This document shows, piece by piece, positions 10,316 through 41,800 of a stretch of 41,800 bases of DNA (positions are counted from its first letter, which is position 1; the number at the start of each line of letters is the position of its first letter). This DNA comes from Escherichia phage vB_EcoD_Teewinot. The position numbers and the translations under genes were made by a program. The stretch is taken from the sequence record NC_073053.1. One strand, 5' to 3'. Under the pieces are notes generated by a model, which was given only the letters and a program-made list of their open reading frames with translations, searched no databases and had not been told where the DNA came from.

Positions 10316-10678
10316 ATGGCTAAAGCACCACTCTTTACACTTGACCCTAAGCCAACCTTTAAGCTGCCGATTGAGATCCCGCGCCCTGGCGAGAACGAAC
10401 CGGGCAAGATGACGTTTACCGTCCGCCACCGCCCGATCGACGAATTTTCGCAAACCATGCAGGAAACTGAACGAAAGCTATCGGAATATGACGACAATGA
10501 CCCGGACGGCTTTAACGTTATGGTCGAGGCCATCATGCACGTCGCAGAAGGCTGGAATCTGCCGGACGAATTTAACGCGGAGAACGTCCGCCGCCTGGTG
10601 GTCAACTATCCGCGCGCGTTTGGCGTGTTCCACACGTCGTACTATCTCGAACTGATGGGGTTGCGTGAAAAAAACTAA
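10316..10678 (+). CDS. tail assembly chaperone (G-like)
   Basis: ATG 10316 preceded by GGAGA; 120 aa, acidic; ends at TAA 10676-10678 directly after an A-run slippery site. Confidence 0.6.
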   Translation: MAKAPLFTLDPKPTFKLPIEIPRPGENEPGKMTFTVRHRPIDEFSQTMQETERKLSEYDDNDPDGFNVMVEAIMHVAEGWNLPDEFNAENVRRLVVNYPRAFGVFHTSYYLELMGLREKN

Positions 10679-10992
10679 TTGAGGCGGCGCGACGCTTTTA
10701 TGGCCCGCCGCCACCCTCCGAAGATTTAGCCGCAAGTTTATGGGGTGCGGCCCCCGAAGATGTTTGTCCGCCTGTTGCGCTATGGCCCGACAACGCGAAG
10801 GTAGTCGCAGTCTTCACAGATTGCTCCACGCAATGGCGCACCGGTTTTGGTGGCGCATACGGCATCGACTACGGCGTGCTGGAGTGGTTATTTAAGATGC
10901 ACGGTATCGAAAACGAGCAGCGCGCGTTTAAAGATATCAAGCTAATGGAGCGAATCGCGCTTGATGAGATGGCGCAGCAGAACCCCGCATAA
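10316..10992 (+). CDS. tail assembly chaperone GT-like fusion made by -1 programmed frameshift
   Basis: The -1 frame is open with no stop from 10675 to TAA 10990-10992 (hand-translated: LIEAARRFYGPPPPSEDLAASLWGAAPEDVCPPVALWPDNAKVVAVFTDCSTQWRTGFGGAYGIDYGVLEWLFKMHGIENEQRAFKDIKLMERIALDEMAQQNPA). It has no ATG of its own. Slippery heptamer A AAA AAC lies at 10669-10675. Confidence 0.55.
10669..10675 (+). promoter_or_regulatory. -1 ribosomal frameshift slippery heptamer (A AAA AAC)
   Basis: X XXY YYZ heptamer in the last codons of the G-like ORF; the downstream -1 frame is open for about 105 codons. Confidence 0.5.
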
Positions 10993-11135
10993 TGAAGCGG
11001 GACAGGCGGGACGTCCCGTTTTGTCCCGCCTCTGTAAAACTGCATATCTACTCACTTCCACTGCATAAACTCAAAACGGGACAAGCGGGACGTCCCGCTT
11101 TGTCCCGCCCTGTAAATGTGCATACCTATGCAGTT
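10993..11135. repeat. pair of 30-bp GGGAC palindromes with TGCATA-containing spacers
   Basis: Two near-identical imperfect palindromes CGGGACAAGCGGGACGTCCCGCTTTGTCCCGCC around 11003-11040 and 11084-11120, each centred on GGGACGTCCC, separated by CTGTAAA(N)TGCATA-type repeats. Confidence 0.7.
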
Positions 11136-11139
11136 TTAT

Positions 11140-11313
11140 TGCATAAAGTAAGCGGGACAAAAAGCGGGACAAACAAGGGGCGGGACAAAGCGGGACAGCA
11201 CCCCGTCCCCGCCAGTGCTGCCGCGGTTTTCAGCCGATCGGGACAGCGGGACAGCACCCCAGTCTTTCAGACTAGACGGGGGTCAATGGCCCCCCTCGTC
11301 TGAGACTGAATAA
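11140..11313. repeat. 174-bp GCGGGACA-array element, copy A
   Basis: Four tandem GCGGGACA units spaced about one helical turn apart, a variable centre, two more GGGACAG units, then a long imperfect hairpin (AGACGGGGG...CCCCCCTCGTCT). Near-identical copy at 37996-38169. Confidence 0.8.
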
Positions 11314-11331
11314 GGTTTGTTTTGAAATCGC

Positions 11332-11340
11332 TGATACAAT
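11332..11340 (+). promoter_or_regulatory. extended -10 promoter element upstream of the tape measure gene
   Basis: TGaTACAAT at 11332-11340; no good -35. Low confidence. Confidence 0.25.
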
Positions 11341-11376
11341 ATCCATCGGCAACTGCATAAAAAAGGGGACTGCATA

Positions 11377-14019
11377 ATGGCAGGTCAGGCAGCAGGCATC
11401 ACGCTAAAGGCTGATGTTGCACAAATCAGAACGGCAAATACTGTGCTGGACTCCTTCGCACAGAAATCCGAGAACACAGAAAACAAGGTTAAGAAATTAA
11501 ACGACACCCTCGGCAAATCCAAAAAGGTGACGAGTGACGCCGCGGGCGGAATGGAAAAGCTGGCAAACGAATCGCAGCGCGCCGCCGATGGCATGACGAA
11601 ACAGGAGCGACTCGCCAACAGGTTAGGCATGTCGACTAAAAACTTGGGCTTTGCCTCGCGTAACGCCGCATTCCAGTTACAGGATATCGCAGTTACGCTT
11701 GAGATGGGGATGCCGGTACACCGCGTTATGCTTCAGCAGTTACCGCAGCTAACTGGGGCGTTCGGTGGATTGGGTAACACTCTGCGTTATGTTGCTGGCT
11801 TCCTCGGTCCAGTTGGGATCGGCCTTGCTGCGGTAACGGCAACGTTAGGCGTGGGCGTAGCAATTACGTCCCGCGCAGAGAACCAGGTCGCAGCGCTTAA
11901 CAAGACGCTGGCGCTGTCAGGTAACATTTCCGGCCTAACGGCAAACCAGATCCTGGTGCTATCCGAGAACGCCGAGCGCATGGGCGGGTCGTTCCGCAAG
12001 ACGCGTGACACAATCCAGGCGCTGGCGGCGGCGGGTGTGAAAGCGGGGGCGGACTTCGGCCCGCTGGCGAAGGTTGTGAATGACTTCGCGAAGGCGTCTA
12101 ATCAGCCGATCCCTGACGTGGTTGAATCCATCTCAAAATTGTCGAACGACCCAGTGGGCGGACTGCGTGCGCTGGCGGATAAGTATCATGTCGTTACCGA
12201 GGCGCAGATCCAGCAGGTGCAATCGCTTGTAGATATGGGGCGTGAAACGGACGCGGTTGCTCTGGCTAACAAAACAGCCGCTGCGTCGTTCTCCAGCATG
12301 ACCGATGAGGTAAAGTCCAACATGGGTACGCTTGAGCGGTCGATGAACGTAGTTACATCGGCAGCTAAATCTATGTGGGATGCCATCCTGGATGTGGGCC
12401 GCGCGCAGTCCTCGAATGAGTCCGAGATGAAAGCGCGTGAGTCCTTGCAGCGCATGACCACGGCGTACTATGCCGAGATGAGGGCGGTAAACGCTGCCGG
12501 TGGGGTAATGACCGAAGCGCAGAAAGCGCGTATTAACATGCTTTACAGCGAACTGGTCGCCCAGGAAAAGGTAGTAGCGTCGCTCACCCTTCGCAACCGT
12601 GCCGAGCGAGACAGCGCCAGCGCCGCGGATGAAGCAGCAAAGGCGAACGAGGAGGCAAACCGCGCCGCCCGCGACCGCTCCGCGTTTGAGAAGGAGTACG
12701 CAACCAACGCGAAGCGGCGAGCCGACGAGATCGCCCGCCTAAATTTGCTGAATAAGCGCGGTGTTATTAACGAGAAAGAACTAGCCGAGGCGGTGAAGCA
12801 GGTCAACGAGCGTTACAAAGACCCCGCGCCGAAGAAAGCGGAGGCAGTTCGAGTCGATGCCGGGCTGAAAATGCTGGAAGTCGCGCGAAGCGAATTAGCC
12901 CAGCTTCGTGAGTCTGGAAAGCAGATCGAAGCCAACGCATCGACGCAGACCCGCACGCAACGCGCGCAAGCGTCCCTGAACAAGCTGATTGCCGATAATG
13001 AGCAGTTAATCACCGCGAGCAAGGAGCGCGCACTCACGGCAGCAGAAAAGCAGCAAACGGCGGCGTTCGAGGCGGTTAAATCGGTACGCGAGCAGATCGT
13101 CGAAGAAGCCAAATTGCTGGACGCGAAAGAGAAGCAGATCAAAGCACACGCCCAGGTCGATGCATTCATCAAGAACCAGAACGCCGAGCTAAAAGCCACC
13201 GCGGCGGGATATGCGCTTTCCACTCGCGAAGCGGCTAACCTGCGCGAAGAATTGCAGCTAATTGATCGCCTGAAGCGGGTGGGCGCTAACGATACCGATA
13301 TTGATCTGGCGGTGTCTAAGCTGCGCGAAGTGCAGGAAGCACAGACCGGTGCTAACGCCTCGCTATGGGATGGCTTCAGCCGCGGGCTTAAGGATAGTGT
13401 TGATGAAATGGGTAACGGCTATACGCAGATGACGTCACTCACAAAATTCACGTTCGGCGCTATGCAGGACACGATGAACGAGTTTTTCGAGACTGGCAAG
13501 CTGAACGCAAAAGATATGGTTAAGTCCATTCTGAGCGAATTAATAAAGCTGGCTACCTCGCAGGCGTTCAAGTCCATCGTTAGCGCTTTCGGCGGTGACG
13601 GCGGCAAAAACGGATTGTTCGGCGCTATTTTCTCCGGCCTCACTAAGAATGCGGACGGCGGAGCGTACGCAGGGGGCAACCTCGCGGCCTATTCGGGGCA
13701 AGTGGTAAGCCAGCCCACCTTTTTCAGTTATGGCGTCCAGGCGTTCGCTAAGGGCGCAGGATTGATGGGGGAGGCTGGCCCCGAGGCCATCATGCCGCTT
13801 AAGCGCGGGCCAGACGGTAAACTTGGCGTTGCCGCGGCAGGCGGTGTCGGGGGAATGATTGTAACGACCAACGTTAACATGGGGACCGGTAAGACGGATA
13901 CCAGTGTTAGCGGTCCAGACCCGCGCACCGCGCAGGCGTTCGGAAAGCAAATCACCGAGTCGGTCAAGGCCGAGATCGTGAAGGCGACGAAACCGGGTGG
14001 TGTACTTTACAAACGATGA
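11377..14019 (+). CDS. tail tape measure protein
   Basis: 880 aa, long helical A/Q/K/E-rich protein with glycine-rich C-terminal part, AAGGGGA RBS; located after the G/GT chaperone and before the tail tip genes. Confidence 0.85.
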   Translation: MAGQAAGITLKADVAQIRTANTVLDSFAQKSENTENKVKKLNDTLGKSKKVTSDAAGGMEKLANESQRAADGMTKQERLANRLGMSTKNLGFASRNAAFQLQDIAVTLEMGMPVHRVMLQQLPQLTGAFGGLGNTLRYVAGFLGPVGIGLAAVTATLGVGVAITSRAENQVAALNKTLALSGNISGLTANQILVLSENAERMGGSFRKTRDTIQALAAAGVKAGADFGPLAKVVNDFAKASNQPIPDVVESISKLSNDPVGGLRALADKYHVVTEAQIQQVQSLVDMGRETDAVALANKTAAASFSSMTDEVKSNMGTLERSMNVVTSAAKSMWDAILDVGRAQSSNESEMKARESLQRMTTAYYAEMRAVNAAGGVMTEAQKARINMLYSELVAQEKVVASLTLRNRAERDSASAADEAAKANEEANRAARDRSAFEKEYATNAKRRADEIARLNLLNKRGVINEKELAEAVKQVNERYKDPAPKKAEAVRVDAGLKMLEVARSELAQLRESGKQIEANASTQTRTQRAQASLNKLIADNEQLITASKERALTAAEKQQTAAFEAVKSVREQIVEEAKLLDAKEKQIKAHAQVDAFIKNQNAELKATAAGYALSTREAANLREELQLIDRLKRVGANDTDIDLAVSKLREVQEAQTGANASLWDGFSRGLKDSVDEMGNGYTQMTSLTKFTFGAMQDTMNEFFETGKLNAKDMVKSILSELIKLATSQAFKSIVSAFGGDGGKNGLFGAIFSGLTKNADGGAYAGGNLAAYSGQVVSQPTFFSYGVQAFAKGAGLMGEAGPEAIMPLKRGPDGKLGVAAAGGVGGMIVTTNVNMGTGKTDTSVSGPDPRTAQAFGKQITESVKAEIVKATKPGGVLYKR

Positions 14020-35043: not shown

Positions 35044-35373
35044 ATGAATATCAAAGAAGCAATTGAAGTGTTATCTAATGCAATCCGCGGCGAAGCGGGT
35101 AAATCCTGGTATTACACAAATGCGGTGGATACTCTGTTATTTGAAGTGTCCAGATTATCGCGTGCTGAGAAGGAGCTTACCGCGAAGCTGGAATTGCTCA
35201 ACGGCACGGCAGCAAGCAAGCTGCAAAAGCACAATGAAGAAATGGAAGAATACAAAAAACAGGTTATCCGTTTGCGCGCCGAGGGCAAATCCTGGGCGAT
35301 GATTGCCGAGTTGACCGGAATTAATCAGAGCACAGTGCGCTCCTGGGTACGCAATAATAAAACTTCTAAGTAA
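35044..35373 (+). CDS. HTH DNA-binding regulator
   Basis: 109 aa; C-terminal GKSWAMIAELTGINQSTVRSWV is a typical helix-turn-helix; first gene of the rightward operon. Confidence 0.65.
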   Translation: MNIKEAIEVLSNAIRGEAGKSWYYTNAVDTLLFEVSRLSRAEKELTAKLELLNGTAASKLQKHNEEMEEYKKQVIRLRAEGKSWAMIAELTGINQSTVRSWVRNNKTSK

Positions 35374-35383
35374 GGCCACGGCA

Positions 35384-37648
35384 ATGAACTTAATTAAATT
35401 CGCTGTAACACGACCCGCTAAAAAAGGCGAAAAAGCCAGGGCGGAAAACTTCCAGATGACCACCGATGAGTTTTTCGAATTTATTAATGATGCGAAAGAA
35501 ATATCCTCGGTGCATATCAACAAGACGGAAGATAAAGCGGAGTATGCGCGCCGCAAGCGTAAGGCTGATGGTATTGTGGCTTATACCCGTGACGGCTTAC
35601 GCCGCAAGACCAGTGCCGTGGACCGCTCGATCCTGTTCTTCGATATCGACCGTACCGACACCCGCACCCTGCGCCGCTGCCGTAAGGCTTTCATCGACGC
35701 GGGGCTGGAGCACGTATTTCACACCACAACCGGCGACCGCCACCCGCTGAAAGGCGGCACGCGTTGCGCTCGATTCCTGGTACTCACGGACAAGCCTGTA
35801 CCGGCTGAAGACCTGGGCCGTGTCCAGTATGCGCTATTACACCAACTGGGTCTGTCAGATGTGGACTTCGACGATTGCACGAAAGACACAAACCGCCTGA
35901 TGTACCTGCCACACCAGCAGTCTGTCGTTAAGTGCCACTACGGCAAGCGCGCCCGCGTCCGTCGTCTGCTCCGCCTGGCTGACAAGCTGGGAGTCGAGAA
36001 AGAGGAAGTACGCCGCGAACTGACCCAGGGCGATGATGGTGTGGCGGACGGTATTCTGGATTGGTGCTTCCAGGCGGGATTCGAACCGCTGTCGTCTGGT
36101 CGTGGTTATGAAGTGCCATGCCCGAACGAACACCTGCACAGCGGCGAAGGGTCCACCGCTATCTTGGTTAAGGATGGCGAGATCCGTTTCAAGTGTATGC
36201 ACACCGGCAACGAGTGTTGCTCGGAGCTGAACAGACACCAGCACCTGGCGCTACGTCTTATCGGGATCCCGGACCACCTGAACGTCGAGCCACACAACAT
36301 GTCCCGTAAGCAAATCGCCGCCATCCTCCCCGGACTGGACGACGAGGAAGTGGAATCGTGCTATGAACATATCGTTGATGCGGTCGGAGACGGCGACGAG
36401 TACGGCGTGTGTACTGATGCAGACCTGGACAACGAGCCGGTCGCACTGTTCAGTAAGCACGACCCGATCATCGAAGGCCTGGTCAACTTCAAATCGACCT
36501 GGTATCTCGCCGGTGAGTCGAACATCGGTAAATCGTTCTACGTGCTGGGGCAAATGGGTGCGGTTGCCGCGGGGATTCCGTTCGGCGGTGCGAAGGTCGT
36601 CCAGTCCCATTGCTTCTATTTCGACGCGGAAGGTGGCGAAGCCTCCAACCAGCGTAAGGAAGCATTGCAGATCAAATACGAGCACGACCTCGACAAGCTG
36701 CACATTATCGATCTGCAATCACGCGGCTGGGATATCACCAGCAAATCCGGCTTGCGTGAAGTTATCAGCTTCATCAACCGCACCGCTAACGGCGAACCGG
36801 TTGGCCTGGTGGCGTTCGACTCACTCAACCAGACGGTTGCGCTGCGGTCCGCCGATGCTAAACCGTTCGACGAGAACAACGCCAGCGATATGGGTGAAGT
36901 GGTCAAAGCGCTGAAGGCCATCGCGGAAAATACAGGCGGCAGTGCTGGCGTCATCCACCACCCGGCGAAGGGTGCAAACGGCAGCAGATCCCCCCGCGGG
37001 TCCGGCGCGCTGCATGGTGCTGTAGATTCCGCGTTCTTCCTGGAGCAACCGGACGACAATCAGCCCGGACAACTTAACCTGTATCACGAGAAGGCACGTA
37101 ACGGCATCAAGCAAGCGCCGCGCGGCTTCGTCCTGCTCAAGTGCAAGGTTAAGGTGGATCTCCGCAAGTCCGAGGCGTTCGAGGCGCACCAGTCCACCAG
37201 CACCGGGCCAGACTTCGGCGACGTGGTTGCCGGATGGGACGTCAAGCCGATTGCCTCCACGCCACGCGACGAGACTCTCTACCTCGTACCGGTCGCCCTG
37301 GCACCGTTCGCTATAGAACAGGCGAAGGCGGCTGGCAAGGCCGCGGTTAAGGACGAGAATGCCGCAGGACCGCGCAACGAAAAAGAGAAAGTGCTTTATG
37401 CGGCACTGGAAAAACTGATGGAAGATAACCCGGACCATACCGGATTCAGCAAATCGGCAATTGTCCGCCAGGCGGGATTGGCAAAAGGTGGAACATCTAC
37501 GAAGGCAATAGACGATATGGTTGAGCGCGGAGTGTTAGGTTTTTATACCGATCCGCACACCGGGGCCATCTATGGGTCGTCGAATATAGTCATCAAAACG
37601 AATATACCCATCACGCTTTCTGCGACCGATGACGACCTGAAAGATTAA
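35384..37648 (+). CDS. primase-helicase (AEP-type primase domain plus P-loop ATPase)
   Basis: 754 aa; N-terminal SILFFDIDRTD (hhhDhD primase-polymerase motif) and DDCTKDTNRLMYLP, a Cys/His zinc-binding segment, then Walker A GESNIGKS. Confidence 0.7.
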   Translation: MNLIKFAVTRPAKKGEKARAENFQMTTDEFFEFINDAKEISSVHINKTEDKAEYARRKRKADGIVAYTRDGLRRKTSAVDRSILFFDIDRTDTRTLRRCRKAFIDAGLEHVFHTTTGDRHPLKGGTRCARFLVLTDKPVPAEDLGRVQYALLHQLGLSDVDFDDCTKDTNRLMYLPHQQSVVKCHYGKRARVRRLLRLADKLGVEKEEVRRELTQGDDGVADGILDWCFQAGFEPLSSGRGYEVPCPNEHLHSGEGSTAILVKDGEIRFKCMHTGNECCSELNRHQHLALRLIGIPDHLNVEPHNMSRKQIAAILPGLDDEEVESCYEHIVDAVGDGDEYGVCTDADLDNEPVALFSKHDPIIEGLVNFKSTWYLAGESNIGKSFYVLGQMGAVAAGIPFGGAKVVQSHCFYFDAEGGEASNQRKEALQIKYEHDLDKLHIIDLQSRGWDITSKSGLREVISFINRTANGEPVGLVAFDSLNQTVALRSADAKPFDENNASDMGEVVKALKAIAENTGGSAGVIHHPAKGANGSRSPRGSGALHGAVDSAFFLEQPDDNQPGQLNLYHEKARNGIKQAPRGFVLLKCKVKVDLRKSEAFEAHQSTSTGPDFGDVVAGWDVKPIASTPRDETLYLVPVALAPFAIEQAKAAGKAAVKDENAAGPRNEKEKVLYAALEKLMEDNPDHTGFSKSAIVRQAGLAKGGTSTKAIDDMVERGVLGFYTDPHTGAIYGSSNIVIKTNIPITLSATDDDLKD

Positions 37649-37960
37649 ATTTTGCGCGCATTGGGAATTCCCATATCGCTAAAGATTAAATTTTGCGCGC
37701 ATTGGTTGCCATTTTGGGAATTCCCATATCGCTAAAGATTAAATTTTGCGCGCATTGGTTGCCGATATGGGAATTCCCATATCGCTAAAGATTAAATTTT
37801 GCGCGCATTGGTTGCCATTTTGGGAATTCCCATATCGCTAAAGATTAAATTTTGCGCGTATTGGTTGCCATTTTGGGAATTCCCATATCGCTAAAGATTA
37901 AATTTTGCGCGTATTGGTTGCCATTTTGGGTGTTTTTAACTGGTCGTATTGGTTGCCGTG
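37640..37960. repeat. iteron array, about six tandem 53-bp repeats (candidate origin of replication)
   Basis: Unit AAAGATTAAATTTTGCGCGCATTGGTTGCCATTTTGGGAATTCCCATATCGCT at 37681, 37734, 37787, 37840, a 41-bp first copy at 37640 (12-bp deletion) and a degenerate sixth; each has the palindrome TGGGAATTCCCA, extended to GATATGGGAATTCCCATATC in the third copy. Starts in the last codons of the primase-helicase gene. Confidence 0.75.
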
Positions 37961-37995
37961 TAGGGTGATTATTATGAATAGTTATGCAATAAAAC

Positions 37996-38169
37996 TGCAT
38001 AAAGTAAGCGGGACAAAAAGCGGGACAAACAAGGGGCGGGACAAAGCGGGACAGCACCCCCGTCCCGCCCCGGATGGCGCGGCTTTCAGAGGAGCGGGAC
38101 AGCGGGACAGCACCCCAGTCTTTCAGACTAGACGGGGGTCAGTGGCCCCCCTCGTCTGAGACTGAATAA
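37996..38169. repeat. 174-bp GCGGGACA-array element, copy B
   Basis: Same length as copy A (11140-11313); identical over the first 60-odd bp and the last 70-odd bp except one A/G difference, with a diverged roughly 40-bp centre. Confidence 0.8.
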
Positions 38170-38307
38170 AATCCCAATACACGGCAGCATAGTGAAAATT
38201 GCGTCGAGGGTAGAACTCGGCAACCAATGCGGGTTGGATAATGGAGAGTGGGAAATGCAGCCACCGCGGATAGCGATCAACTTTTTCATGCGCATGATTA
38301 ATATTGG

Positions 38308-38336
38308 TTGCATTCGTGCCAGCACCCTGCTATATT
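38308..38336 (+). promoter_or_regulatory. sigma70-like promoter built from two ATTGGTTGCA copies
   Basis: TTGCAT (38308-38313, from motif copy 1), 17-bp spacer, TATATT (38331-38336), then motif copy 2 (38334-38343), GAGGA RBS and ATG 38367. Confidence 0.45.
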
Positions 38337-38366
38337 GGTTGCACACCAACAAGAGGACTGCACAAA

Positions 38367-39903: not shown

Positions 39904-40381
39904 CAACGGTCTACGATTTACGGCAGCATGGGAGACTTTCAGCCCAGTGCCGTATTTCGCGACTAAGAAAGAGCAGGCCCGCGGCCTGTACACCTGGGGT
40001 TATGGTCATACCGGCACTAACCCGCCTCGAAGCATTACCCGCGCGGAAGCGCTGGAGCTACTCAAGCGCGATGTGGCGTATGCTGAGGACCGGGTGAACA
40101 AATACGCACATCCGAGCATTAACCAGGCGCAATTCGACGCGCTGGTGGACCTGGTGATCAATGCTGGTCCCGGTCCGATCGTACCGGACGACGTAGCCGG
40201 TGACTTCGATGATGCGGTGCGACTGGGTGACTGGGCGAAGGTCCGTGCTACTCTGCCGCAGTTCCGCAAGCAAGGTGGGGAGGTGCTTAAGGGTCTGGTC
40301 CGTCGAGCAATCGGCAGGCAAGCGCTATTCGATGGAAAGCAGTGGGACGTTGCCGAGAAAATCGGTCGTAACGCAGCATAA
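39890..40381 (+). CDS. endolysin, GH24 lysozyme type
   Basis: 163 aa; recalled P22-type lysozyme landmarks match: SDNGL near the N-terminus, catalytic E (WETF), YTWGYGHTG, INQAQFDALVDLVINAG, C-terminal RRAIGRQALF. Confidence 0.8.
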   Translation: MRFSDNGLRFTAAWETFSPVPYFATKKEQARGLYTWGYGHTGTNPPRSITRAEALELLKRDVAYAEDRVNKYAHPSINQAQFDALVDLVINAGPGPIVPDDVAGDFDDAVRLGDWAKVRATLPQFRKQGGEVLKGLVRRAIGRQALFDGKQWDVAEKIGRNAA

Positions 40382-40397
40382 TACGAGGTAACACAGT

Positions 40398-40565
40398 ATG
40401 CTAAAAAGTATTCTTGATCATAACGCCGACGCGCTCGCCGCGCTGGCTAAAACCGAAGACCCAGGCGCACGCGCCATTATCGCGGACACAATCAGTCATG
40501 CGGGTGTCTTTGATGCGAAGCTGCCGAGTCCGCCACCGCAGGAGGAATCTGGTCCTGCAGCGTAA
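40398..40565 (+). CDS. small hypothetical protein in the lysis cassette (absent from the ORF track)
   Basis: 55 aa (MLKSILDHNADALAALAKTEDPGARAIIADTISHAGVFDAKLPSPPPQEESGPAA) with GAGGTAA RBS, followed by a clean terminator. Confidence 0.45.
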   Translation: MLKSILDHNADALAALAKTEDPGARAIIADTISHAGVFDAKLPSPPPQEESGPAA

Positions 40566-40572
40566 ACAATCA

Positions 40573-40597
40573 AGCCCGGAATTATCCGGGCTTTTTA
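40573..40597 (+). terminator. rho-independent terminator
   Basis: AGCCCGGA-atta-TCCGGGCT followed by TTTTT. Confidence 0.65.
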
Positions 40598-40657
40598 TTG
40601 CTTGACTCGGGACCGTGGTATATTGTCCTCTGACCAATAACCAGGAAGTTAATTAAT

Positions 40658-41800
40658 ATGCACCCGCAAACTAAAATCACCGACGAGCAATTGATCGCCG
40701 AGTTGCAATCCGGCACTACCTCGAAAGATATTGCGAAGAAATACGGCCTTTCCCTCCGAAATGTCTACATGCGAAAAGCCCGCCTGTCGAAGAAAGGGAT
40801 TGGACACGGCAATGATGCCGTAATCCGTAAGCGCGTTGCCGATGGATTTGGCGTTAAGCGTGTATCCGCCCTGGTGCGCGGCAATGGCGAAGAGGTCATG
40901 TCGTGGGTTATCACTGAGCAGGACAAGGAGCGCCAGCTTGAGGCGATGCGCGCAGTGCTGGATGGCATGAACAGCGAAATCACACCGGCAGCACCAGTTA
41001 GCGCCCCGCCAGTACCGATCCAGGCGCTCGACTTGCTCAACCTGTACACCGTGTCAGACTTCCACCTGGGCATGTTGGCATGGGGCGAGGAGACTGGCGA
41101 AGACTGGGATATGGCGATCGCCGAAGACCTGTTCTACCGCTGGTTTGTCGAAGCCTTCGCACGCGCCCCGGACGCAGGCACTGCCGTAATTAATATCCTC
41201 GGTGATATGGCCCACTTTGATAGCCTCGATGCTGTCACTCCGGCAAGTGGTCACATACTGGACGCCGACACCCGCTACCAGAAACTGGTCCGATACATGA
41301 TTCGCATGGTGCGCAACGTCGTCGAACTGGCGCTGCAAAAACACCACAAAGTCAAACTGCTAATCGTCCAGGGAAATCATGACGAGTCGGGTATGATTTG
41401 GCTGGCTGAGATGTTCAATACTCTGTACGAGAACGAGCCGCGCGTCGATGTGGATACGTCCCCGGACGTCTACAAAATGGTGCAGCACGGTAAGACCACG
41501 CTATTCTTCCACCACGGGCACAAAGCGCGATTCGATGCTATCGAGCAGGTTATGATTTCTAAATTCAGACAGGCTTTCGGATCCAGTGAGTACAGCTACG
41601 CGCACGTAGGCCACTTGCACCACCAGAAGATTGTAGAATCCCGCAACATGATTGTTGAACAGCACCGGACGCTCGCAGCGAAAGACGCCTACGCCAGTCG
41701 TGGCGGTTGGATGTCCGGTCGCAGCGCAAACGTCATTACCTACAGCGCCAACTACGGCGAAGTAGCGCGCTTAACCATTAGCCCGGAAATGTTGAAGTAA
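40658..41800 (+). CDS. SbcD/Mre11-like metallophosphoesterase nuclease with N-terminal HTH
   Basis: 380 aa; N-terminal HTH-like TTSKDIAKKYGLSLRNVYMRKARL; phosphoesterase motifs VSDFHLG, ILGDMAHFD, VQGNHDE, HHGH, GHLHH. Complete ORF ending at the window edge. Confidence 0.6.
   Translation: MHPQTKITDEQLIAELQSGTTSKDIAKKYGLSLRNVYMRKARLSKKGIGHGNDAVIRKRVADGFGVKRVSALVRGNGEEVMSWVITEQDKERQLEAMRAVLDGMNSEITPAAPVSAPPVPIQALDLLNLYTVSDFHLGMLAWGEETGEDWDMAIAEDLFYRWFVEAFARAPDAGTAVINILGDMAHFDSLDAVTPASGHILDADTRYQKLVRYMIRMVRNVVELALQKHHKVKLLIVQGNHDESGMIWLAEMFNTLYENEPRVDVDTSPDVYKMVQHGKTTLFFHHGHKARFDAIEQVMISKFRQAFGSSEYSYAHVGHLHHQKIVESRNMIVEQHRTLAAKDAYASRGGWMSGRSANVITYSANYGEVARLTISPEMLK

Follow-up and report, generated by a model that had tools for sequence, protein, structure and literature searches.

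We analysed the 41,800-nt sequence of Escherichia phage vB_EcoD_Teewinot (NC_073053.1, genus Dhillonvirus); this whole stretch is the window, and all positions given below refer to it. We studied the block located between the GT tail assembly chaperone gene and the tape measure protein (TMP) gene, hereafter region A, together with the repeat region that follows the primase-helicase gene, hereafter region B. Judging from its sequence, region A is a non-coding, cis-acting DNA element and a paralogue of the control region located after the primase-helicase gene. We tentatively favour, with somewhat less than even confidence, the reading in which region B would be the replication origin and region A a second, accessory origin-type module. 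We favour it because of the paralogy of the two regions, the probably ancestral position of the array beside the primase-helicase gene, the selection acting on the block, the presence of a candidate initiator, and the precedents of pRN1, P4, and RSF1010.

From the GT stop codon to the TMP start codon, the gap measures exactly 384 bp, which bears out the about 385 bp of non-coding DNA reported by an earlier reading of the letters alone (the sequence-only reading). The limits given there, 10993-11313, hold at the left edge and fall short at the right one, since the block extends to 11376. The features of region A are the following:

10993..11376, no strand: whole non-coding block (region A), the 384-bp gap from GT stop to TMP start
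10997..11029, no strand: palindromic unit 1, four CGGGAC half-sites (two forward, then two reverse) around GGGACGTCCC
11039..11068, + strand: pair of direct ACTGCATA(T/A) sites, 21 bp apart, in spacer 1
11076..11108, no strand: palindromic unit 2, half-site layout as in unit 1, centred on GGGACGTCCC
11126..11146, no strand: inverted pair cTATGCA-N7-TGCATAA, abutting the array on its left
11139..11313, + strand: 174-bp element, paralogous to 37990-38165, CGGGAC(A) array plus 49-nt hairpin
11152..11197, + strand: four direct GCGGGACA units (starts 11152, 11164, 11180, 11190) with A-rich spacers
11205..11237, no strand: central segment, one inverted GTCCC (11205) plus region-A-specific sequence
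11238..11254, + strand: two tandem CGGGACAG units (starts 11239, 11247) adjoining the hairpin
11260..11308, + strand: imperfect stem-loop of 49 nt, CAGTCT..AGACGGGGG - loop - CCCCCC(T)CGTCT.AGACTG
11332..11340, + strand: putative extended -10 promoter element TGATACAAT, 36 bp before the TMP start
11352..11377, + strand: two ACTGCATAA sites flanking the TMP ribosome-binding site (RBS) and overlapping the TMP start codon

The two palindromes, the TGCATA-containing spacers, and the long imperfect hairpin described by the sequence-only reading were all recovered at these places. Both palindromic units are parts of a 79-bp direct repeat (10998-11160, 2.1 copies), unit 2 being its second copy, and TGCATA(A) sites were mapped at 11041, 11062, 11119, 11127 (minus strand), 11140, 11354, and 11371, including between the palindromes and the array. 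The four repeated units placed about one helical turn apart on the same face were confirmed as to their number and not as to strict phasing, their start-to-start spacing being 12, 16, and 10 bp. The GCGGGACA motif occurs 16 times in the whole Teewinot sequence against 1.78 expected, a count reached by 0 of 100 shuffles. Eight of these sites are inside the block, which on both strands holds 14 CGGGAC cores and is thus a cluster of short direct and inverted repeats; CTGCATAA occurs 5 times in the whole sequence against 1.13 expected. The TGATACAAT element is identical across 6 aligned genomes and lacks a -35 hexamer, so that it was not called by the consensus promoter scan.

Two relatives differ in their palindromic units. 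BEK2-2 (locus L091, 143-230) has a single unit; the loss of one 79-bp unit points to recombination between the direct repeats. In PNS1 (locus L092, 130-330), the inner CGGGAC|GTCCCG is replaced by GGGGTGCTGTCCCG in both units, suggesting a concerted change or conversion between them.

The sequence-only reading missed that the 174-bp element has a near-identical copy in the same orientation after the primase-helicase gene. Indeed, six of the eight GCGGGACA sites found outside the block fall in region B, at 38008-38109. Within the genome, the identity between the region A and region B elements is 0.92, as high as that between orthologous copies. The two modules lie 17 or 27 kb apart, and their hairpins have the same orientation. 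The features needed to describe region B are listed below:

35384..37648, + strand: primase-helicase, 754 aa, candidate binder of the arrays
37661..37930, + strand: 53-bp tandem repeat, 5.1 copies, 96% identity, directly after the primase-helicase gene and part of region B only
37990..38165, + strand: region-B copy of the 174-bp element, array plus hairpin at 38116-38164
38263..38264, + strand: putative pac end, homologous to the first base common to the WF5505, PTXU06, and UDS3lw records

The inverted pair that abuts the array in region A has its counterpart in TTATGCA-N7-TGCATAA at 37982-38002, preceding the 174-bp element copy, and the position of the central segment is occupied in region B by a different, equally conserved sequence. 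Each unit of the 53-bp repeat, which has fewer copies in UDS3lw and PTXU06, holds ATTGGTTGCC, the palindrome GGGAATTCCC, and an AT-rich stretch; these units could be origin iterons or equally a row of promoter-like boxes. The early promoter region lies right of the region-B element.

We then assessed the conservation of the block among related phages. It was found in 157 phage records, nearly all Dhillonvirus, 150 of which cover at least 80% of it, and across Dhillonvirus it occupies the same place between GT and TMP. The 103-aa open reading frame (ORF) at 10992-11303 is open in Teewinot, in Sodalis phage SO-1, and in a few genomes; elsewhere it is reduced to pieces of 92, 63, 64, or 40 aa in different frames. 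The alignment of relatives shows non-triplet indels in the block, and the ORF matches no Pfam or PHROG family. The non-coding claim of the sequence-only reading thus survives the comparison, in which most relatives carry a broken ORF rather than a conserved gene.

Among five genomes, identity ranges from 0.78 to 0.92 for the block and from 0.83 to 0.93 for the 174-bp element, against 0.67-0.81 for the third codon positions of TMP. Because it is more conserved than these third positions, the block is under purifying selection. In an alignment of 37 distinct copies (18 from region A and 19 from region B), the CGGGACA cores and the hairpin stems are invariant, the spacers and the hairpin loop vary, and the central part of about 35 bp is distinct in the two regions. 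The block therefore behaves as a putative array of sites under selection, with 6-bp cores fixed and spacers varying, in keeping with the likeness to a protein-binding array noticed by the sequence-only reading. It is very improbable that the block is instead a protein-coding gene or a neutral, functionless remnant of duplication. A gene would agree with the ORF being open in Teewinot and SO-1 and with the "hypothetical protein" annotated in several records, and it is opposed by the frame-shifts, the non-triplet indels, and the missing family matches described above; a neutral remnant would not be expected to exceed synonymous-type sites in conservation, nor to be kept in place across Dhillonvirus lineages and Eiauvirus with a motif tracking that of region B. 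An origin from the host, from a prophage, or from a mobile element was rejected, as the block has 0 matches in 5,426 complete E. coli genomes.

The comparison of more distant relatives, two groups of which are named here by the identity of their primase-helicase to that of Teewinot (68% and 49% lineages), gave the following picture:

Main Dhillonvirus: CGGGAC array plus hairpin after the primase-helicase gene; same array plus hairpin in the GT-TMP gap
68% lineage (TMP 57%): CGGGAC array plus hairpin after the primase-helicase gene; the same directly upstream of TMP
Edwardsiella phage eiAU (Eiauvirus): non-coding block after the primase-helicase gene; non-coding block between GT and TMP
Salmonella phage vB_STM-ZS (ZS; primase-helicase 44%): GGGGAGA array plus GC hairpin after the primase-helicase gene; no gap and no second cluster between GT and TMP
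49% lineage: TTGCGAGT/GACTCGCAA repeats after the primase-helicase gene
Jerseyvirus and Kagunavirus (primase-helicase about 32%): no array after the primase-helicase gene

Common to the two blocks of eiAU are TCGCCCCG motifs, GCAACCAAC arrays, and a 52-bp segment that is 88% identical and runs in the same orientation in both; region A of this phage retains the hairpin core GACGGGGG..CCCC-T-CGTC. In ZS, seven GGGGAGA motifs, one of them inverted, lie within 150 bp starting right after the primase-helicase stop codon, and there is a GAATAGTTATGCA element that is also present in region B of Dhillonvirus. In Jerseyvirus and Kagunavirus, the primase-helicase gene is followed by a terminator plus an antisense cro-like gene. 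Because the more distant relatives have an array beside the primase-helicase gene, and ZS has no GT/TMP copy, we infer that the former position is ancestral and the GT/TMP copy derived. The motif is lineage-specific, yet it appears from the sequences to be the same in regions A and B wherever both loci were seen (main Dhillonvirus, 68% lineage, and eiAU). Therefore, both loci would answer to one trans-acting, sequence-specific protein.

Three phage proteins are candidates for this role. The AlphaFold model of the primase-helicase (mean predicted local distance difference test score, pLDDT, of 76) has three parts: a primase-like N-terminal region with an invariant DxD and a Cys/His cluster (Zn); a RecA/RepA-like core, whose best coverage is on RSF1010 RepA (TM-score normalised to the target, 0.64); and a C-terminus (residues about 666-737) folded as helix-helix-helix-strand-strand, a winged helix. 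When modelled alone, this winged helix matches MarR, linker-histone H1, and ORC winged-helix folds. The second candidate is a 109-aa helix-turn-helix (HTH) protein (Sigma70_r4_2/HTH_23) encoded just upstream of the primase-helicase (35044-35373), and the third is TerS, with its conserved helix-turn-helix segment IGVGVACLYRW. All three proteins change in parallel with the array motif, which by lineage is CGGGAC, TCGCCCCG, GGGGAGA, or TTGCGAGT. Naming the binder from the co-variation of recognition helices was rejected, as all three candidates fit.

In the reading that we favour, a sequence-specific phage protein, for which the C-terminal winged helix of the primase-helicase is the best candidate, would coat the arrays. 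Once bound, it would oligomerise and open the adjacent DNA, exposing the strands of the stem-loop; the helicase would then be loaded, and the primase domain would begin synthesis near the stem-loop. The two modules could fire as two origins, or one multimer could join them, as P4 alpha does with ori and crr.

Known systems offer partial precedents for such a mechanism. The origin of pRN1 is a stem-loop located directly 3' of the operon orf56/orf904, encoding a repressor and a primase-helicase-winged-helix protein; this stem-loop is required for replication and is functional when moved elsewhere (PMC4234260). Teewinot likewise has a pRN1-type protein preceded by a small regulator, and the order seen in pRN1 and BIP-1 (small regulator, primase-helicase-winged-helix gene, non-coding stem-loop region) is that of region B, where the 49-nt stem-loop lies about 470 bp after the primase-helicase stop codon. 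Unlike Teewinot, pRN1 has a single stem-loop of about 100 nt, no iteron arrays, and an SF3 helicase. The P4 repeats are 8-bp TGTTCACC octamers in two clusters, ori and crr, and crr consists of two direct repeats adjoining the alpha gene. Teewinot resembles P4 in having a multifunctional primase-helicase with a predicted C-terminal winged helix and short repeats in two clusters; in P4 alpha, the winged helix binds the origin repeats (PMC4234260). However, P4 alpha combines a Toprim primase with an SF3 helicase, whereas the Teewinot protein is AEP-like in its primase and RepA/RecA-like in its helicase; the P4 clusters are 4.5 kb apart, against 17 or 27 kb for the Teewinot modules, each of which adds a conserved stem-loop; and binding and cis-requirement are proven in P4, while in Teewinot both are putative. 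In RSF1010, iterons and the RepA helicase act before ssi stem-loops, at which a dedicated primase starts 3' of the loop (PMC4234260). Teewinot shares with it the repeat array, the stem-loops, and a RepA-type helicase, the core of its helicase being closest to RepA in coverage; RSF1010 differs in having three separate proteins, 20-bp iterons, and two ssi placed on opposite strands within one origin, rather than far apart on the same strand. Overall, our analysis suggests that, in the way it works, the element comes closest to an origin made of iterons and a stem-loop and having a distant partner site, and we assign it to no named family.

Several observations weigh against this interpretation. 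GC skew follows gene orientation and gives no origin signal at region A or B. The array cores are of 6-8 bp at irregular spacing of 8-16 bp, unlike classical iterons of 17-22 bp; the two hairpins share a strand, which ssiA/ssiB of RSF1010 do not; and the helicase is of the RecA/RepA type, whereas pRN1 and P4 have an SF3 enzyme. The fold matches of the winged helix are weak (E = 6e-3 to 0.4), and TerS, the small HTH protein, and the winged helix each have a putative recognition helix whose sequence is shared, or nearly so, by the two CGGGAC lineages and differs elsewhere. Among 20 distinct hairpins, 0 pairs show double-sided (compensatory) changes. Moreover, only about 100 bp separate the putative pac end from the region-B copy, and the arrays could therefore be used by the terminase. 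Finally, region B is beside the primase-helicase gene and region A, with its stem-loop, is not.

The sequence-only reading had offered three functions for the block, namely a packaging site, an accessory origin, and transcriptional or structural control. None of the three is proven; the accessory origin appears to fit best because the paralogous copy directly follows the primase-helicase gene, as in known origins. Packaging is an unlikely alternative: the CGGGAC arrays would bind TerS, region B would be the pac recognition site, and region A an accessory terminase site, used either as a second, weaker loading site or as a synapsis partner of region B before the first cut. Small-terminase multimers of T4 (gp16) have been proposed to pair two homologous sites in this way, and the layout of four sites, central segment, and two sites recalls the hexamer clusters of P1 pac. 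As in the pac sites of P1 and SPP1, short-repeat clusters lie near a defined first cut in region B; region A differs in lacking the cut-site context. The independently deposited WF5505, PTXU06, and UDS3lw records begin at the same nucleotide, CAGCAGATAGCGATCAAC, and because this shared start maps about 100 bp right of the hairpin, region B would hold both arrays and pac end, 38263|38264 being probably the first pac cut. This position is several kb upstream of terS, whereas in the P22/Sf6-type TerS family, pac is inside terS. Korf et al. linearised contigs at the point where most reads ended abruptly, WF5505 has an exact terminal redundancy of 2,026 bp, and in PhageTerm analyses of published genomes, UDS3lw, Opt-212, and BF9 were all assigned headful packaging, in the case of UDS3lw with a pac site. 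The HTH segment of TerS, the same in both CGGGAC lineages and different in eiAU, ZS, and the 49% lineage, also agrees with a role in packaging. However, the cut is outside the CGGGAC array, midway between two mutually inverted copies of ATTGGTTGC (minus strand, 38220-38228; plus strand, 38303-38311), and its 25-nt context has no second copy in the Teewinot sequence at up to 7 mismatches. The sequences that follow the two hairpins show no similarity, region A has no read-defined end in any record, and the ZS array starts at the primase-helicase stop codon, far from terS. The packaging suggestion of the sequence-only reading is thus half right: a read-defined end adjoins region B, and the cut context is absent from region A. 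The records that start within the block were rejected as evidence of a physical end, as BEK2-2 and PNS1 start at different bases; the HH3 record ends exactly at the edge of the shared repeat, and CHD5UKE2 and Kente break within it. Since record ends are scattered or at repeat edges, they point to assembly breaks. A cos site was rejected as well, several PhageTerm analyses giving headful packaging and the lone "cos" claim (EE09) being elsewhere in the genome.

Control of gene expression is an explanation to which we likewise give a low probability. Late transcription arriving from the head and tail-shaft genes would be attenuated, or its transcript processed, by the palindromes and hairpin, or the arrays and TGCATAA sites would be operators of a phage regulator acting on a promoter just upstream of TMP, with the region-B copy doing likewise for the early promoter on its right. 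The phage requires far fewer molecules of TMP than of the major tail protein. Each copy of the element has co-directional genes on either side and is oriented with transcription, upstream of a promoter-like element (TGATACAAT at 11332-11340 in region A, TTGCAT-N17-TATATT at about 38306-38340 in region B), two ACTGCATAA sites flank the TMP RBS and start codon, TTTT follows palindrome 1, and a "terminator" is annotated under the block in WF5505 (on palindrome 1) and PTXU06. In addition, the whole block folds as RNA far more strongly than its shuffles (z = -6.9). Yet the T-runs behind the palindromes are not conserved (variants ATCT, ATCG, and CCT), the terminal hairpins are followed by AATAAGG in region A and AATAAAA in region B rather than by a U-run, and the scans found no convincing + strand terminator or sigma-70 promoter in either region, while ordinary intrinsic terminators are used elsewhere in the phage. 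The 68% lineage lacks both the RBS-overlapping TGCATAA (ACTGCATAA) sites and the TGATACAAT element, and the motif lies on both strands and is swapped wholesale in other lineages. A far less probable alternative is a small non-coding RNA gene in two copies, in one version a CsrB-like protein sponge ending in a hairpin. The two copies in the same orientation, each with a stable terminal hairpin, the GGA within CGGGACA and within GGGGAGA of ZS, and the folding of the 174-bp element, somewhat above that of shuffles (z = -2.55), would suit it; the uncalled upstream promoter, the missing U-tract terminator, the TTGCGAGT motif of the 49% lineage without GGA, the occurrence of the motif on both strands, and the inverted copies in the palindromes, which would sequester it, would not. 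Rfam 15 gave no match at the gathering threshold in the whole Teewinot sequence, and at E <= 1 the block hit only sub-threshold microRNA hairpin models (at most 27 bits against the 67-100 needed). RNA pairing of the central segment was rejected, as the 37-copy alignment shows no covariation there. Because the motif is on both strands and is replaced between lineages, with no covariation in the central segment, no Rfam family, and no U-run, we treat the arrays as putative DNA-binding sites rather than as RNA structure. The hairpin is a different case: 97.7% of cells are paired, whereas sliding the partner gives 44-56%, and an invariant stem encloses a loop that is unconstrained in sequence and length. 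Covariation in it is weak, with one possible A:T to G:C swap in the 68% lineage that depends on the alignment register, and we treat the stem-loop as a structure probably used in single-stranded or extruded DNA, or in RNA.

We also considered a bipartite system in which one multimeric phage protein would pair region B, holding the likely origin and the pac end, with region A 17 kb away. We regard this as doubtful, more so than either packaging or expression control taken alone. The bipartite arrangement appears to be kept from Dhillonvirus through Eiauvirus, the two sites co-evolving in their motif, and to our knowledge no virulent siphophage has been described with such a two-site cis system. 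If it exists, the loop or synapse would couple the initiation of replication to the start of packaging, or would sense concatemer formation.

The repeats themselves are not a new sighting. In Sodalis phage SO-1 (NC_013600), annotated in 2009-2010, a repeat_region named "region A" (11214-11597) lies between gp16 and the tape-measure gene, and a "region B" (40178-40657) follows the helicase-primase gene; the record notes direct, inverted, and palindromic repeats and the similarity of the two regions. Region A of SO-1 is the same element, its block being 89% identical to that of Teewinot, and there it is an annotation only, carrying a "possible ..." note. In the literature on the SO-1 repeats, we found no function, binding protein, or comparative analysis. 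New here are the evidence of selection, the probable ancestral link to the primase-helicase, the lineage motif apparently shared by both loci across two genera, the predicted winged helix in the primase-helicase, and the putative placement of the pac end beside region B.

Regarding the genome setting, the + strand of Teewinot carries the terminase, head, and tail genes, followed by replication genes on the - strand and then, again on the + strand, by the small HTH gene, the 754-aa primase-helicase, small early genes, and lysis genes. The genes bounding the block are the following:

10316..10678, + strand: tail assembly chaperone G, left boundary gene of the block (Pfam Phage_TAC_4, E = 8.7e-24)
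10672..10992, + strand: T extension of GT, in the -1 frame (Pfam DUF1799, E = 2.7e-21)
11377..14019, + strand: TMP gene, right boundary gene (Pfam TMP_2, E = 1.8e-44)

The GT frameshift has its slippery run A AAA AAC at 10669-10675, the T stop codon TAA is at 10990-10992, and a Tape_meas_lam_C domain was also found in TMP. Escherichia phage Pubbukkers is 99.4% identical to the Teewinot block plus flanks. With 41,800 bp, the Teewinot sequence falls about 2.6 kb short of its closest relatives (about 44.4 kb), and its last base is that of the stop codon of a metallophosphatase-like gene (40658-41800); the sequence may be incomplete or carry deletions. Two records titled Campylobacter phage A144 and E6 (MG065648.1 and MG065643.1) show 96.6% identity to the block, or coliphage-type tail chaperones, and look like mislabelled or contaminant sequences. 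An antisense gene lies between GT and the block in the 68% lineage (locus L046, 2865-3245, +) and in eiAU (locus L094, 42365-42718, -); that of the 68% lineage has its own ATTGGTTGC-type promoter and encodes 126 aa with a signal-peptide-like N-terminus and no Pfam match. Gene insertion seems to have a hot spot in the GT/TMP gap.

Other short sequences recur in and around region B. In UDS3lw (PQ658967.1, locus 418-650), a tandem duplication covers two-thirds of the region-B element on its 3' side, GGGGCGGGAC through hairpin; either the copy number varies naturally or the repeat was misassembled. Region B of Teewinot (38181-38191), ZS (~4140), and the 49% lineage (~12597) contains an 11-mer, ACACGGCA(G/A)CA, located 16-75 nt downstream of the hairpin. 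It is common to the three despite their differing array motifs, and region A has only ATCGGCAAC; the 11-mer might mark a conserved start or recognition site, its shorter core being too frequent in the genome to judge. Indeed, CGGCA[AG]C after the hairpins was rejected as a conserved start signal, this 7-mer being too common (54 on the + strand and 43 on the -). The ATTGGTTGC motif has 16 occurrences (5277, 5290, 21516, 23509, 25393, 27745, 34844, six within 37701-37948, 38220, 38303, and 38334), mostly intergenic and oriented like the downstream gene, and at 38303-38340 it overlaps the TTGCAT-N17-TATATT promoter. Kindred forms are found at matching promoters in ZS (ATGTTGGCTGC), eiAU (GCAACCAAC arrays), and the 49% lineage. 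The ATTGGTTGC motif resembles a promoter or operator signature specific to the phage, separate from the CGGGAC motif.

Dhillonviruses are common coliphages, several of them present in the BASEL collection (for example Oekolampad, GeorgBuechner, TheodorHerzl, and KarlBarth) and in sets of phage-therapy isolates. In the literature, we found no paper mapping a dhillonvirus replication origin, and none on the pac signal beyond PhageTerm calls. Our analysis offers a candidate origin and pac region for these phages, with a putative first cut at ~38264, and names short candidate sites (CGGGAC, TTATGCA-N7-TGCATAA, and one stem-loop) along with three candidate binders. For those who engineer these phages, the 174-bp direct repeat carries a risk of recombination and is a point at which assemblies break, and the block should not be taken for a free insertion site. 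As for the biology of the genus, the 384-bp break in the otherwise tight GT/tape-measure junction would be a selected second copy of part of region B, and the evidence ties it to the same putative DNA-binding protein as region B, which in the reading favoured here may be the one that starts replication.

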